Part shown: one piece after another, positions 176 through 4,996 of the stretch | Layout of the letters: the number at the start of each line of letters is the position of its first letter | Position numbering within the stretch: the stretch's first letter is position 1 | Translations under genes and position numbers: made by a program | DNA from: a plasmid | Reading direction: 5' to 3' (one strand) | NCBI RefSeq assembly: GCF_055900595.2 | Contig: NZ_JBVWEU010000010.1 | DNA: 4,996 nucleotides | The notes under the pieces: generated by a model | The model's database searches: none | What the model saw: only the letters and a program-made list of their open reading frames with translations | What the model was told of the DNA's origin: nothing

Positions 176-280
176 ACAGATTTGGTGGCAGCGGTCTTGT
201 ACACCCTGTTACCACGGTTCAGAAGTTCCCCAACTTACTGATCCTTCGAAAAACCACCTCCCCAGGTGGTTTTTTCGTTT
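176..280 (+). ncRNA. RNA I antisense copy-number control RNA (ColE1-type)
   Basis: Starts at ACAGA (cf. pMB1 ACAGTATTTGG) about 7 nt downstream of a TAAACT -10 box; ends at an intrinsic terminator (stem accacct 253-259 / aggtggt 264-270, then a T-run). Length ~105 nt and position relative to the RNA II promoter match ColE1 RNA I. Stem-loop sequences differ from pMB1. Confidence 0.75.
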
Positions 281-495: not shown

Positions 496-1554
496 ATGGC
501 GATCTATGCCGTATGGAATAACAAGGGTGGTGTAGGGAAAAGTTACCTTACTTTTCAGTTAGCCTCTGAATATGCCAGACAGAACCCTACTAAAAAGGTC
601 CTGGTGGTTGACCTGTGCCCACAAGCGAACTCGTCCTCTATGTTACTTGGTGGAATGATAAATGGCGAAAACACACTAAACCAGATTCATTCAGCAATAC
701 AGAGAAAGACAATATCTGGATATATTGAGGATAGGATCAGAAGTCCATATATTCCTACCAACACTGGTTCTAGCTATGTAATAAATGTATCTACACACAA
801 TAGTAAAGTTCCAAATAATCTATATCTTGTCACTGGCGATGAACAATTAGAACTCCAAGCATCAAGAGTTGTTGGGGCATCATTTCCAGGTCCCCATGAT
901 GCATGGCGTACTGTTCACCTCTGGATTAATGATTTAATCAGTGACATTTGCAACTCATGGAATAATGAAGATAGCTGCGTATTCATTGACTGCAACCCTA
1001 GCTTCTCTATTTATACAGAGTTAGCTTTAACCGCAGCAGAGCGCCTTTTAATTCCTTTCTCTGCCGATGGTTCATCAAAGAGAGCAGTTAAGGCTGTACT
1101 TTCTTTAGTTTATGGTGAGCGTCGCCATCAGAATGAACCACAATCAGATTTCTATCTTAATAGCAATCGTTATTCTATGTCGCTACCACAAATATATATG
1201 TATGTTGGAAATAGATTAACGCAAATGAACAATTCATCTGCCAGTGCATTTAAGACGGTAGTAACCGAAATTGGTGATGAAATTTGGAAAGTATGGCAAA
1301 CAAAACCAAGTCTGTTTTGTATTCACCCAAATGGGAGCTCAACGCCAAATAATAAAAGATCTTTCAGGAATATGTTTCAGTATGAAGTAAATGATGCAAA
1401 CACAGCATCTGTCGTATCTGGAGCCTTAGGTATTCCAATCGCGACATTAACTGCAGGAAATAAAACTGTTTCAGGAAAAATAATAAAGGTTAATCAGACG
1501 CAGCTAGATAAACAAGTCCCCAACATTGTAGCTCTCGCTGGTATGATCGAATAA
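496..1554 (+). CDS. ParA/MinD/Soj-superfamily P-loop ATPase, 352 aa, with ~90-aa C-terminal extension of unknown function
   Basis: ATG preceded by AGGAG (484-488, 7-nt spacer). Deviant Walker A KGGVGKS at residues 10-16 (nt 523-543); ParA-type VLVVDLCPQANSS segment; Walker B-like CVFID (nt 976-990) followed by NPSFSIYTELALTAAERLLIPFSAD. Long uninterrupted ORF ending at a strong intrinsic terminator. AT-rich compared with the backbone. No symbol assigned because the specific family is not recognised. Confidence 0.85.
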   Translation: MAIYAVWNNKGGVGKSYLTFQLASEYARQNPTKKVLVVDLCPQANSSSMLLGGMINGENTLNQIHSAIQRKTISGYIEDRIRSPYIPTNTGSSYVINVSTHNSKVPNNLYLVTGDEQLELQASRVVGASFPGPHDAWRTVHLWINDLISDICNSWNNEDSCVFIDCNPSFSIYTELALTAAERLLIPFSADGSSKRAVKAVLSLVYGERRHQNEPQSDFYLNSNRYSMSLPQIYMYVGNRLTQMNNSSASAFKTVVTEIGDEIWKVWQTKPSLFCIHPNGSSTPNNKRSFRNMFQYEVNDANTASVVSGALGIPIATLTAGNKTVSGKIIKVNQTQLDKQVPNIVALAGMIE

Positions 1555-1590: not shown

Positions 1591-1841
1591 TTTTTCTTTA
1601 CTGCTTGCAGCGCCCTGCCAGCACTAGAGGCCAACTCTTTGATTACATTATCTTTACTTTCAACAACCTCAGTAAGCAACTCGTTTTCGTTTTCCAGTTT
1701 ATTCAAAGCGTTCTGAGTATCTTCAATAGCATCATCATACCCTTCGGCATAGCCATCCATCCAACCAAGAGTATACGTTTGGTCCAAAAGATCAGCTTGC
1801 TTATCCTGCAGATCTTTATTCTGATTATTGTTAGAGCCCAT
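1584..1841 (-). CDS. Small acidic hypothetical protein, 85 aa (D/E/N/Q-rich, probably helical)
   Basis: ATG at 1841 preceded on the minus strand by TGAGGAAAAAAC (GAGG about 8 nt upstream); ends at the shared terminator. The plus-strand antisense ORF (1605-1901) starts with TTG, lacks an SD and is hydrophobic, so the minus-strand reading is preferred. No recognisable family. Confidence 0.6.
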   Translation of the reverse strand: MGSNNNQNKDLQDKQADLLDQTYTLGWMDGYAEGYDDAIEDTQNALNKLENENELLTEVVESKDNVIKELASSAGRALQAVKKNK

Positions 1842-2016
1842 GTTTTTTCCTCATTTGTTGGCGCATCTGAGTTTTCAAACCAGGAGGAATTCCATTTCTA
1901 AGTTTCTCACTTAGTCTGACTGGTGGTGTGTTTCCTGAGACTGGATTACAGTCAGCATCCACCCCGACATCTTTCTTTTTATAGTCGCCAATATTCCTAA
2001 CGTTATCTGTAGTCAT
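1831..2016 (-). CDS. Possible small basic protein, 61 aa, overlapping the start of the 85-aa ORF by 11 nt
   Basis: ATG at 2016 downstream of the AT-rich divergent promoter region; its last codons contain the SD of the next ORF (translational-coupling geometry). No convincing SD of its own and no recognisable motif; may be only a 5' leader. Confidence 0.3.
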   Translation of the reverse strand: MTTDNVRNIGDYKKKDVGVDADCNPVSGNTPPVRLSEKLRNGIPPGLKTQMRQQMRKKHGL

Positions 2017-2783: not shown

Positions 2784-3188
2784 TCACCGGAAAAAATCAT
2801 CCACAGAGTCGCTCCACTCATGCCCGGAAAGAGACCACACCTTGTTTATAGGGGGAGGATAACCACTCCTGCAGTACCCGTTTTTTCCCACGAAATCGAA
2901 TGCCCCGTGCGGGTATCCATTGATCAGGAGTACGCACTTCTGACTGTCTTCTGACCAGCCAATTTTAACATCAGAAGGAATGTGACCGTCTGAAACGTCT
3001 TCGGCATTGTAGATGTGTACTGCGTCCATAATCGGGTTTCCCTCGACGGACTCATCGAGCGCATAGAAATACCCGGTCCGGCCATCGTCTTCGAACACGG
3101 CGGCCAGCATGCCCTCAGGAGCGAGGCTCTTTATAACCTGTTCCTCCCCGACAACGAGCTGGGCCTGTATCGTCACTAAAATGGTCAT
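2784..3188 (-). CDS. Hypothetical protein, 134 aa, GC-rich, cargo of the Xer-bounded cassette
   Basis: ATG at 3188 with AAGGAG about 10 nt upstream on the minus strand; the ORF fills almost all of the interval between the two Xer-like sites. No motif recognised. The overlapping 70-aa minus-strand ORF (3115-3327) is judged spurious. Confidence 0.6.
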   Translation of the reverse strand: MTILVTIQAQLVVGEEQVIKSLAPEGMLAAVFEDDGRTGYFYALDESVEGNPIMDAVHIYNAEDVSDGHIPSDVKIGWSEDSQKCVLLINGYPHGAFDFVGKNGYCRSGYPPPINKVWSLSGHEWSDSVDDFFR

Positions 3189-3245
3189 CAGGTCTGTTCT
3201 CCTTTCCTTGGTTGCTTCGGCAGCCAGCTTTCAGACAAGCGGATA

Positions 3246-3273
3246 ATTTACCATAACATCCGTTATCAGCATC
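3246..3273 (-). other. XerC/XerD-type site-specific recombination site (cer/dif-like), site 2; candidate plasmid multimer-resolution site
   Basis: Minus-strand reading GATGCTGATAA-CGGATG-TTATGGTAAAT; central region and XerD arm identical to site 1, XerC arm about 8 of 11 to consensus. About 300 bp of GC-rich sequence with no credible ORF lies on its XerC side (3274-3580), where cer-type accessory sequences would be expected. Confidence 0.6.
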
Positions 3274-3594
3274 GTCAGAAACGCGCTGAGGGCGTTTCTG
3301 ACGGGAAACCGGTAAAACAGGCAACAAACCACCCGAAAACCCGCCAGAAACGCGCAGGCTCTGTTTTTATGGCATGCATGAGTATGCACGCAAGTGCATA
3401 GCGCGAATATTCACGCCATTCAGACAGGGTAAGTCCTGTTTCCGGCGTTCTTCCCATCCGAAAACGGTGAACGGGGACGCAATTTATTGCGTGGCCGTGA
3501 AGCGTTGCCGGCGCAGCCGGAAAACCGGTTTTCAGCACGTTCAGGAATCGGGTTCGTCGACGGCCGGCAATCACGTTATGGCAAGTCGCCGGAC

Positions 3595-3784
3595 GACTCA
3601 CCACACGATTCACCGGCGACTCTGCACTAGAGTCGTACCTAGAGTCGCCGCGACTAAAAAACAACCAAACGGGGAGTCGGGTCTAGAGTCGGGTCGTTAT
3701 TAACTCATTGTTTTTATAGCCCTGAGTCGTTACCGACTCTATGACGACTCGCCGGGGACTCTATGACGAGTCGTCATAGAGTCG
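3595..3784. repeat. Array of 12 GAGTC/GACTC motifs (11 as the hexamer GAGTCG/CGACTC), including two pairs of tandem 12-bp repeats and nested inverted repeats
   Basis: Counted directly: GAGTC at 3630, 3642, 3674, 3686, 3724, 3768, 3779; GACTC at 3595, 3618, 3735, 3746, 3757. Tandem ctagagtcg at 3627 and 3639; tandem gagtcgggtc at 3674 and 3686; 13-bp gactctatgacga at 3735 and 3757 (direct) and 3771 (inverted). Chance expectation for a 5-mer on both strands in ~190 bp is under 1. Confidence 0.7.
3757..3783. repeat. 27-bp perfect palindrome gactctatgacgagtcgtcatagagtc (13-bp arms around a central G)
   Basis: Every position i pairs with position 28-i; sits at the end of the GAGTCG array, immediately before an AT-rich stretch (3786-3860). 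Confidence 0.75.
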
Positions 3785-3982
3785 GATCTATATAAATAAA
3801 ATTTAAAAAACGAAATCTCAGGAAAGTAAACTACTGATATTAAATACAAATCTGCAAAATTTTAATTTTGCGTGGGGTGTGGGTATTTTTAGTGGTGAGG
3901 AGCGTTCAGAGATCTGACTATTTTTGGGAAGGTTCAGGAACTCCCCGGGATGGCCGGAGAGGAAAACTGAAGCATGACAGGG

Positions 3983-4384
3983 TCAGGATTTTTTCCAGAA
4001 TTTCCACCATGGCGCCGGGGATTCAGTTAATTTTGCCTGGTGATTTTCAAGAAGGAGCATGGCCTGTTTCAGGCTGTCAATGTGCGAATCTTTGGACAAA
4101 AGTAAAGTGTTCAGGTGTTCAATCTCCTGTTTCAGATGACGAATCACCTGTTCACACTGGTCAACAGAGGCTGTATCGCGCTGTTCAGAGACCTGTCCAG
4201 AATGGTGTTCACCCTTCAGTTGTTCAAAGGGACCAAAGACACGTAAAAGCTCTGAAGTATCTACCATTTTTGCATTGCGCTCACCGCTACAGGTGGACAG
4301 GTCACCTGCTTTAATTAACCTGTGCAGTGTTGTTCTACTCTTACCCGTCAGTCGGGCTGCCTCACTAATAGACACTCTGGCCAT
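3983..4384 (-). CDS. HTH DNA-binding protein (excisionase/MerR-like HTH_17-type N-terminus) with C-terminal coiled-coil-like region, 133 aa
   Basis: N-terminus SISEAARLTGKSRTTLHRLIKAGDLS fits the excisionase-family HTH pattern (EAAxLxGxSxxTxxRLIxxGxL); the C-terminal half is heptad-like and Q/E/L-rich. Start ATG overlaps the rop stop (TGATG at 4382-4386), implying co-transcription and translational coupling. Its antisense 148-aa ORF is Arg-rich and judged spurious. Confidence 0.7.
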   Translation of the reverse strand: MARVSISEAARLTGKSRTTLHRLIKAGDLSTCSGERNAKMVDTSELLRVFGPFEQLKGEHHSGQVSEQRDTASVDQCEQVIRHLKQEIEHLNTLLLSKDSHIDSLKQAMLLLENHQAKLTESPAPWWKFWKKS

Positions 4385-4575
4385 CAGTTACCATCCTGTA
4401 ATGCATCCAGTCTCGAGGACAGTGTACGGAAAAGATGCTCCGCATCATCGTGGAGTTTCTCACAAAGGTCGGCCTCGACATCAAGATCAAGCTCGTTAAG
4501 CTTCTCCAGCAGGAGCAGAGATTGATGCTGGATGAATTTAGCCATGTTCAGCGCTGTTTTCTGTTGTTTCGTCAT
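4384..4575 (-). CDS. rop: Rop/Rom RNA I-RNA II interaction modulator, 63 aa
   Basis: Translation MTKQQKTALNMAKFIQHQSLLLLEKLNELDLDVEADLCEKLHDDAEHLFRTL... closely matches ColE1/pMB1 Rop (MTKQEKTALNMARFIRSQTLTLLEKLNELDADEQADICESLHD..., recalled from memory), with identical length of 63 aa; located just downstream of the origin in replication direction. Confidence 0.9.
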   Translation of the reverse strand: MTKQQKTALNMAKFIQHQSLLLLEKLNELDLDVEADLCEKLHDDAEHLFRTLSSRLDALQDGN

Positions 4576-4599: not shown

Positions 4600-4996
4600 C
4601 AGTGTAGGGATGTTCTCTCTTCCGCTTCCTCGCTCACTGACTCGCTACGCTCGGTCGTTCGGCTGCGGCGAGCGGCAGGAGCATACGTTATGAAAGCTCG
4701 AGAAAACCGAGCGATCATGTAATTAAGCAAAGGGCAACGAAAGGCCGCGCCGCTGGCGTTTTTCCATAGGCTCCGCCCCCCTGACGAGCATCACAAAAAT
4801 TGACGCTCAAGTCAGAGGTGGCGAAACCCGACAGGACTATAAAGATACCAGGCGTTTCCCCCTGGAAGCTCCCTCGTGCGCTCTCCTGTTCCGACCCTGC
4901 CGTTTACCGGTGTCATTCCGCTGTTATGGCCGCGTTTGTCTCATTCCACGCCTGACACTCAGTTCCGGGTAGGCAGTTCGCTCCAAGCTGGACTGT
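4600..4996. other. ColE1-type origin of replication region (RNA II 3' domain, primer RNA-DNA transition, conserved origin-proximal hairpin region); continues at 1-330
   Basis: Near-identity by eye to pMB1 over cttccgcttcctcgctcactgactcgct.cgctcggtcgttcggctgcggcgagcgg and ggccgcg..gctggcgtttttccataggctccgcccccctgacgagcatcacaaaaat.gacgctcaagtcagaggtggcgaaacccgacaggactataaagataccaggcgtttccccctggaagctccctcgtgcgctctcctgttccgaccctgcc. The RNA-DNA switch is expected near 4735-4745 (inference, not mapped). Confidence 0.85.
4738..4996 (-). ncRNA. RNA II replication primer precursor, 3' portion up to the origin
   Basis: Continuation of the minus-strand RNA II from position 1 across the circular junction; the 3' boundary is approximate and placed by analogy with pMB1, where the primer ends near the ggccgcg..gctggcgttttt motif. 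Confidence 0.65.

Follow-up and report, generated by a model that had tools for sequence, protein, structure and literature searches.

A rop-overlapping gene of the Exc1/OrfX family on a small ColE1-type plasmid: a putative membrane tether beside a predicted F-type oriT

Introduction

In Klebsiella and other Enterobacterales, small plasmids of the ColE1 type are frequent carriers of resistance genes; in publications, their inheritance is treated as random diffusion. The DNA studied here, referred to as the window, is a plasmid stretch of 4996 bp (contig NZ_JBVWEU010000010.1). On its minus strand, rop is directly followed by a gene for a 133-amino-acid (aa) protein with a predicted helix-turn-helix (HTH), and an array of GAGTCG repeats lies beyond the stop of this HTH gene. 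What does the second gene encode, is it genuinely joined to rop, and is the array the site on which its product acts? According to the original prediction, the two genes are translationally coupled, the protein is linked to replication control, and it may bind the array.

The overall explanation favoured here, held with moderate confidence, is that the two genes form a coupled pair whose second member belongs with ColE1 Exc1 and Acinetobacter OrfX, that its product is a putative membrane tether, and that the array is part of an F-type origin of transfer (oriT).

The gene pair

The pair and the predicted parts of its second product are as follows (AF2, AlphaFold2 model; ORF, open reading frame).

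4384 to 4575, minus strand: rop, 63 aa (ORF list; 35 of 63 residues identical to ColE1 Rop)
4382 to 4386, minus strand: TGATG stop/start overlap, with the rop stop TGA at 4386-4384 and the ATG at 4384-4382, one A in common
3983 to 4384, minus strand: Exc1/OrfX-family gene, 133 aa (ORF list, profile and structure matches)
4235 to 4378, minus strand: winged HTH, residues 3-50 (AF2)
4166 to 4234, minus strand: disordered linker, residues 51-73 (AF2, low confidence)
4025 to 4165, minus strand: long helix of about 47 residues, residues 74-120 (AF2)
Residues 126-130, minus strand: short terminal helix (AF2)
3986 to 4012, minus strand: aromatic/basic tail PWWKFWKKS (sequence)

The first gene is a 63-aa homologue of ColE1 Rop adjoining a ColE1-type origin of replication (ori) with RNA I, and on plasmids of 99% identity its RefSeq label is 'Rop family plasmid primer RNA-binding protein'. 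The minus-strand junction reads ...cag gat ggt aac TGATGgcc, and a Shine-Dalgarno-like AGGA lies 9 nt 5' of the HTH-gene ATG. Translation of the HTH gene is therefore expected to be tied to that of rop. The claim of coupling through the TGATG was confirmed at this level: the rop stop and the ORF start share one base, and the overlap (TGATG or TAATG) is kept together with the AGGA in L005, L006 and L007, three other alleles on ColE1-type backbones with 41-72% protein identity. Co-expression with rop is likely as well, since a terminator has no space between the genes and the overlap and the AGGA are conserved.

Homologues of the 133-aa ORF were found by tblastn on 2002 plasmids of PLSDB, 1901 of them at a coverage of at least 80%, and an annotated rop overlaps the match in about half of an evenly spaced sample of these hits. 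The dN/dS ratio is 0.17-0.29 for the whole ORF and about 0.07-0.10 for the HTH domain. Judged by these ratios, the ORF is under purifying selection; it is neither a chance ORF nor decaying in relatives. A frameshift or loss in close relatives, which would have spoken against the original prediction, was looked for, and the ORF was found intact. Furthermore, M1 is invariant in an alignment of 85 representatives of the family, and the strong conservation of the N-terminal consensus MAxVSISEAARL also indicates that the start codon is right. Because the overlap and the AGGA are conserved, dN/dS is low and 2002 plasmids carry a homologue, the pair is taken as real, and rop and the HTH gene probably form a genuine conserved operon with translational coupling. 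The 133-aa gene belongs to the ordinary backbone of a plasmid lineage that is very common, and its family is among the very few backbone genes common to small ColE1-type plasmids (about 2000 PLSDB plasmids).

One side observation concerns both genes. In P0022, a 152-aa protein from Klebsiella, HTH residues 1-112 are joined to the C-terminal 40 residues of Rop at a common LLLE. It was considered as a Rop-HTH fusion and set aside; only one such sequence is at hand, and it probably arose by deletion or as an assembly artefact, the plasmid being circular.

Fold of the 133-aa protein

The AlphaFold2 monomer model, built from an 85-sequence alignment, has a mean pLDDT of 87. The N-terminal domain matches Pfam HTH_17 (PF12728; E 4.1e-6, residues 5-48), and this profile match together with the winged-HTH fold places it in that family. 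The Pfam MerR match reaches only E 0.021, and the excisionase profile TIGR01764 scores 18 bits against a cut-off of 28.8. The best Foldseek matches of residues 1-52 are BldC, Pukovnik Xis, MerR-family and RacA DNA-binding domains, with TM-scores of 0.70-0.80 on the target for the BldC, Xis and MerR matches. Pfam, AlphaFold2 and Foldseek thus agree with the description of an excisionase/MerR-like HTH with a helical C-terminal part in the original prediction.

The likeness is limited to the N-terminal domain. The long helix and the tail of the window protein have no counterpart in BldC and Xis. In MerR regulators, an effector-binding region forms the C-terminus; the window protein lacks such a region, the modelled chain ending 13 residues past the long helix. 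As for a role as an excisionase, the ORF list of the window contains no recombinase, and there is no integrase or att context. A search with the family profile found no solved structure of a relative, only coiled-coil noise. PADLOC and PHROGs gave generic HTH matches (mad1, an excisionase phrog) and no sign of a defence system.

One family: Exc1, OrfX and the rop-coupled protein

BLASTP aligns the 133-aa protein to ColE1 Exc1 with 30% identity over 98 residues (E 9e-11), and its structural neighbours in AFDB are largely named 'Entry exclusion protein 1'. Besides this homology, both proteins have an N-terminal HTH, a helical middle and an aromatic/basic tail (KKRGFWSRLFGR at the C-terminus of Exc1, PWWKFWKKS in the window), and both are encoded on ColE1-type plasmids. 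The window protein is therefore an Exc1-family member in homology and in build. The setting differs. On ColE1, exc1 is distant from rop and precedes the exc2 lipoprotein gene, whereas the window has no exc2, its family gene overlaps the rop stop, and rop is inverted relative to ori. The contrast with classical ColE1 in the original prediction thus calls for a qualification: ColE1 does have a homologue of the gene, exc1, though at another place on the plasmid.

The second group of relatives is found in Acinetobacter. NCBIfam NF038291 ('plasmid replication DNA-binding protein', rep_pAB02_ORF2) matches with E 4.4e-17 and 63 bits over profile positions 2-110 of 172. The curated cut-off of 85 bits is not reached, so that by the NCBI rule the protein is a relative and not a member, and the gene follows rop here instead of directly following a Rep_3 initiator gene. 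Like the window protein, Acinetobacter OrfX (pMAC ORF2) is encoded second after a replication-control gene and combines an HTH, a coiled coil and a GFWSRFF-type tail (C-terminus of pMAC ORF2, EKRGFWSRFFKPYG). With an acidic spacer, the Acinetobacter proteins exceed the window protein in length by about 40 residues, and their upstream gene encodes a Rep_3 initiator at a gap of 77 nt, in contrast to the overlap with rop in the window. On the strength of these alignments and shared features, the 133-aa protein, ColE1 Exc1 and Acinetobacter OrfX are assigned to one family. The joining of Exc1, OrfX and the rop-coupled HTH protein as one family is new in this analysis.

Members of this family appear in published work. 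The function of ExcI is listed as unknown, and an excI homologue is found on all Rahnella ColE1-like plasmids together with the replicon and mrs (PMC2831885). Exclusion in ColE1 is assigned to mbeD in passages of two articles, both citing earlier work (PMC2831885, PMC11493245). Acinetobacter orfX ('repA', pMAC ORF2) is conserved after Rep_3 rep genes and transcribed, its function being unknown (PMC9927589, PMC5559437), and pMAC ORF2 lies outside the minimal replicon (PMC5559437). The family thus covers a gene that adjoins almost every Rep_3 rep gene in Acinetobacter and a ColE1 counterpart whose name has been misleading since 1985.

A common gene order emerges from these and other members. Homologues with 46-49% identity follow RepM/RepE-like (Rep_3) genes at 7-nt gaps on L004 and L008 (a Proteus plasmid and a ColE10-type mcr-4.3 plasmid), pMAC ORF2 follows repM, and a metagenomic member follows a Rep_1 rolling-circle gene. 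Three other members follow genes of 187-188 aa with 2-nt gaps or a 4-nt overlap. The exceptions are ColE1 and p4_0.3, in which exc1 stands apart from rop. Typically, then, the family gene is second after a replication-control gene across unrelated small-plasmid replicons, and the rop-coupled form is the ColE1-type version of this rule.

A MinD-like tail and a possible membrane tether

A further conserved feature of the family is found at the C-terminus. At least two aromatic and at least two basic residues occur among the last 12 residues in 82 of the 85 full-length family representatives. The tail is 27% aromatic, compared with 2.7% for the remainder of the protein. It has hardly any acidic residues, and in many members a Pro-rich spacer stands ahead of it. 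Among the 85 representatives, 47 tails are of the WWxF/W type, including that of the window, and 23 of the GFLKRLF type. One protein, P0203, ends in ...KGFLKRLFNF and so contains KGFLKRLF exactly. The membrane-targeting sequence of E. coli MinD, a transplantable tag, is KGFLKRLFGG (PMC5471200). On a helical wheel, W126, W127, F129 and W130 of the window protein share one face and K128, K131 and K132 lie opposite, and the hydrophobic moment of PWWKFWKK is 0.66 versus 0.60 for KGFLKRLF of MinD. The tail is thus predicted, from its residues and the AlphaFold2 model, to be a short C-terminal amphipathic helix of the MinD type, with an aromatic and a basic face. This conserved, putatively MinD-like tail is a new point of the present analysis.

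The following mechanism may be proposed. The long helix would dimerise the protein as a coiled coil, and the paired tails, two weak anchors, would act like the membrane-targeting sequence of MinD. Such a dimer would offer two DNA-binding heads and two membrane anchors and could hold plasmid DNA at the inner membrane, in a role of maintenance or positioning rather than initiation. A dimeric DNA-to-membrane tether of this kind, suggested by the model, is put forward tentatively, as a possibility rather than as the expected outcome. Seeing Exc1, OrfX and the rop-coupled protein as one family with a conserved membrane-type tail makes of a 'conserved hypothetical' gene a testable idea about the holding or positioning of small plasmids in the cell.

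Analogous proteins exist. Noc, a membrane-binding relative of ParB, binds the membrane through an amphipathic helix. RacA, the chromosome anchor of B. subtilis, likewise combines a MerR-type winged HTH with a coiled coil and links DNA to the envelope, as the window protein might if its predicted membrane binding is correct; its DNA-binding domain is among the Foldseek matches (E 0.065, prob 0.99). RacA, however, reaches the pole through DivIVA and not through a membrane helix of its own. Both are analogues without detectable sequence relationship to the window protein, and neither is plasmid-borne.

Exchange of the middle of the gene

Where might the DNA site of such a tether lie? The comparison of the window with L005 gives a hint. 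Their backbones are 82-85% identical on both sides of the HTH gene, rop has a dS of 0.05, and oriT is also conserved. No similarity at the nucleotide level is seen in the interior of the HTH gene (4012-4350), the proteins being 41% identical; only the first approximately 35 nt and the tail codons are common to both genes. Because the interior is dissimilar while both flanks are conserved, the middle of the gene, including the recognition helix, has been exchanged as a cassette. This allele swap is likewise a new point of the present analysis. The middle section is the only backbone segment exchanged together with the recognition helix, and for this reason the cognate DNA site may lie in the variable middle section of the gene itself.

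This section contains a repeat.

4108 to 4226, minus strand: six same-strand TGAACA copies in linker and early-helix codons

Six copies were reached in 3 of 1000 synonymous-codon shuffles; five are in one frame and one in another. In L007, ACAGGT occurs six times, spread over all three frames, a number reached in 0 of 1000 shuffles; in L002, TGAGAC occurs five times in two frames (about 1% of shuffles). By the same test, no such intragenic repeat is significant in L005, L008, L004, L009, L010 or L011. The idea of a universal intragenic binding array was consequently dropped, the repeat being significant only in the window, L007 and L002 among the members tested. When the window is compared with L006 and L007, ACAG cores at steps of 10-12 nt do not change, while the sequence between them varies. 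In addition, dS is 0.49-0.56 in the linker codons versus 0.77-1.29 in the HTH domain, and the dN of the linker is high. The repeat could be a DNA-level cis-acting site or could reflect a repeated E-Q/E-H peptide pattern.

A wider reading is that Exc1/OrfX is a one-protein maintenance device of ColE1, Rep_3 and rolling-circle plasmids whose protein and intragenic site are exchanged as a specificity (incompatibility) cassette. It would explain the allele swap between near-identical backbones if protein and site move together, but we consider it unlikely as a whole.

Several points weigh against the proposed tether and its setting. Membrane binding, dimerisation and DNA binding are all read from the sequence and a monomer model, and the E-values of the Foldseek matches to solved structures are weak, at 4e-3 or higher. 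No DNA target for the HTH protein emerged from the array, a palindrome (both described below) or the intragenic repeats. The TGAACA/ACAG repeats are significant only in the clade of the window and in L002, and the E-Q/E-H peptide pattern could suffice to account for them. The tail, only about eight residues long, could equally serve as a peptide that docks onto a host protein, or as a tip that binds nucleic acid. The plasmid also carries a ParA-like gene, and a second maintenance function may perhaps not be needed. Finally, a simple scan of the minus strand from ori to rop gave no sigma-70 promoter, the only terminator-like feature in it being a weak hairpin at 4753-4734; read-through from the RNA II promoter is hence a possible source of mRNA for the pair.

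Regulator or recombination factor?

Could the protein be a plain autoregulator of the rop (or rep) operon, modulating copy number through Rop dosage, with a tail that has no membrane role? A small HTH protein with a dimerisation helix and a MerR-like fold would suit this role, and the position after replication-control genes in several replicon types fits co-regulation. However, the DNA upstream of rop yielded neither a promoter nor an operator-like repeat, and the ori-rop region is 85% identical between plasmids with differing recognition helices. The exclusion of pMAC ORF2 from the minimal replicon (PMC5559437) also argues against it, and the tail kept in 82 of 85 representatives across replicon types is left unexplained. 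This alternative is improbable, though less readily set aside than those that follow.

A role as an excisionase-like accessory or directionality factor, either in multimer resolution at cer/Xer or in cassette exchange, is more doubtful still. One point in its favour is a site downstream of the gene.

3246 to 3402, minus strand: cer-like multimer-resolution site (aligns to ColE1 3844-3938 and L002; downstream of oriT)

This site, about 600 bp downstream of the HTH gene, contains TTATGGTAAAT, which we take to be a XerD-arm-like core. The HTH_17 and excisionase matches and the structural similarity to Pukovnik Xis point in the same direction, and some homologues adjoin recombinase genes. The Rahnella ColE1-like plasmids all combine the replicon, mrs and an excI homologue (PMC2831885), and Acinetobacter orfX is followed by XerC/D sites (PMC9927589). 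Against this role, a Xis-type repeat array is absent around the cer core, the distance and orientation between gene and Xer site vary, and a membrane-type tail is not accounted for. Moreover, recombination at cer already has its accessory proteins, ArgR and PepA.

The GAGTCG array

The array lies next to a predicted nic site.

3595 to 3783, no strand assigned: GANTC array of 13 motifs in three phased clusters (3595-3646, 3674-3690 and 3724-3783)
3867 to 3883, plus strand: F-type nic region TTTGCGTGGGGTGT/GGG (16 of 17 positions match the F nic oligonucleotide)

GAGTCG occurs 12 times in the window against 1.6 expected, with 11 copies within 3594-3784. The nearest copy ends at 3784, about 200 bp past the stop of the HTH gene, as the original prediction had stated. 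The GANTC motifs start at 3595/3607/3618/3630/3642, at 3674/3686 and at 3724/3735/3746/3757/3768/3779, in steps of 11-12 bp within the clusters. The TraM protein of pED208 binds GANTC motifs 12 bp apart (PMC3159463). About 85 bp past the array, the window nic sequence TTTGCGTGGGGTGTGGG agrees with the F nic oligonucleotide TTTGCGTGGGGTGT/GGT at 16 of 17 positions, with 0 such matches expected by chance, and it contains the TTTGCGTGGGGTGT/GG characteristic of an F-like oriT. The segment 3585-3900 matches at least 5000 plasmids, 3403 of them conjugative. In L013, a conjugative pKpQIL-type IncFII/FIB plasmid, the homologous DNA lies between the TraM ORF and an SLT transglycosylase gene; it has the same nic motif, and TAGAGTC/GACTC repeats immediately precede traM.

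Because of the nic match, the GANTC phasing and the homology to traM-proximal DNA, with phased TraM-type motifs here and homologous repeats upstream of traM in L013, the array is assigned to the TraM-binding part of an F-type (pKpQIL-like) oriT. Unlike plasmids with F-like or pKpQIL oriT, the window plasmid has no tra or mob gene, traM, traY and traI included, and the homology to IncF plasmids stops about 20 bp past nic, where the 3' end of the HTH gene takes over. The tra genes of F, acting in trans, mobilise ColE-like plasmids that carry oriT(F) but no mob genes (PMC9282650). By analogy, the relaxase-less window plasmid is probably mobilisable by a co-resident IncF(K) plasmid. A plasmid typed as 'non-mobilizable' by MOB-suite thus appears to carry a complete F-type oriT through which common IncF(K) plasmids could probably mobilise it. 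The nicked plus strand is the template strand of the HTH gene and rop, and these two would be the first genes to reach a recipient.

Does the HTH protein nonetheless bind this array, as a relaxosome accessory or as the centromere partner of the ParA-like ATPase? The array is 200 bp downstream of its gene, HTH proteins of the Xis/BldC type bind phased repeats, and the plasmid has an orphan ParA-like gene. The homology to traM-proximal oriT of IncF(K) plasmids and the TraM-type motif with its 11-12 bp phasing nevertheless argue against this part of the original prediction. If the protein bound the array, recognition helix and array might be expected to change together; such covariation was looked for and fails in both directions. 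L005 has the same GANTC array with a different recognition helix (RPTIYKMINSG; window, RTTLHRLIKAG), and L007 has a different repeat set (GGATCCGGCAC and TGTCACACAATCC) despite a helix of the window type (RTTLHRLIKTG). Furthermore, neither array nor nic was found in L006 and the Rep_3 plasmids, which carry the family gene, and L005 has the array without a ParA gene. Binding of the array by the HTH protein is therefore very improbable.

Least credible of all is an entry-exclusion factor in the sense of the historical name Exc1: the homology to ColE1 Exc1 and a membrane-directed tail suitable for an envelope function stand against a cytoplasmic DNA-binding fold without signal peptide or transmembrane segment in the AlphaFold2 model, the frequent presence of the family gene in plasmids typed non-mobilizable, and the passages cited above that assign ColE1 exclusion to mbeD and list the function of ExcI as unknown (PMC2831885, PMC11493245).

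Replicon and other features of the plasmid

The window ends in ...gctccaagctggactgt, which joins its own start atgcacgaacccc... inside conserved ColE1 ori sequence, and circular 4991-bp plasmids of Klebsiella, E. coli and Enterobacter are 99.3% identical to the whole of it. These plasmids are typed as ColRNAI_rep_cluster_1987 and 'non-mobilizable'. Since its ends join within ColE1 ori and circular plasmids are nearly identical, the window is a complete small ColE1-type plasmid of 4996 bp. The features outside the gene pair, oriT and the cer-like site are the following.

177 to 278, plus strand: RNA I (Rfam RF00106, 101.8 bits)
496 to 1554, plus strand: orphan ParA-like ATPase, 352 aa (phrog_164, E 7e-35)
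1584 to 1841 and 1831 to 2016, minus strand: two small overlapping ORFs of 85 and 61 aa, both converging on the ParA-like gene

RNA I being on the plus strand, RNA II is a minus-strand transcript that crosses the window junction and extends to the RNA/DNA switch near 4760. Compared with ColE1, ori aligns in reverse and rop forward, which means that the orientation of rop to ori is inverted, another new point of this analysis. The rop gene of ColE1 converges on ori, whereas in the window both rop and the HTH gene point the same way as RNA II and the replication fork; the pair lies on the RNA II strand, 185 nt past ori.

No ParB-type gene adjoins the ParA-like gene in the window. The latter is followed by a hairpin and T-run at about 1560-1585, and the 85-aa ORF is labelled 'hypothetical protein' by RefSeq in relatives.

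At 3477-3492, in the interval from the cer-like site to oriT, there is a perfect 16-bp palindrome, ACGCAATTTATTGCGT. L005 and L012 have it too, and in L002 a variant stands directly after the exc1 stop. It was considered as an operator of the HTH protein and rejected, as it is identical in L005 despite the different recognition helix.

Identical direct-repeat 20-mers (AATTTACCATAACATCCGTT) at 2727-2746 and 3245-3264, 518 bp apart, flank a DUF2251 gene (2784 to 3188). Each holds a XerD-arm-like core, and the second copy forms the core of the cer-like site. Relatives of 4473 bp lack DUF2251 and have a single copy of the 20-mer. Going by these repeats, the DUF2251 segment looks like a cassette bounded by Xer sites that is gained or lost as a unit.

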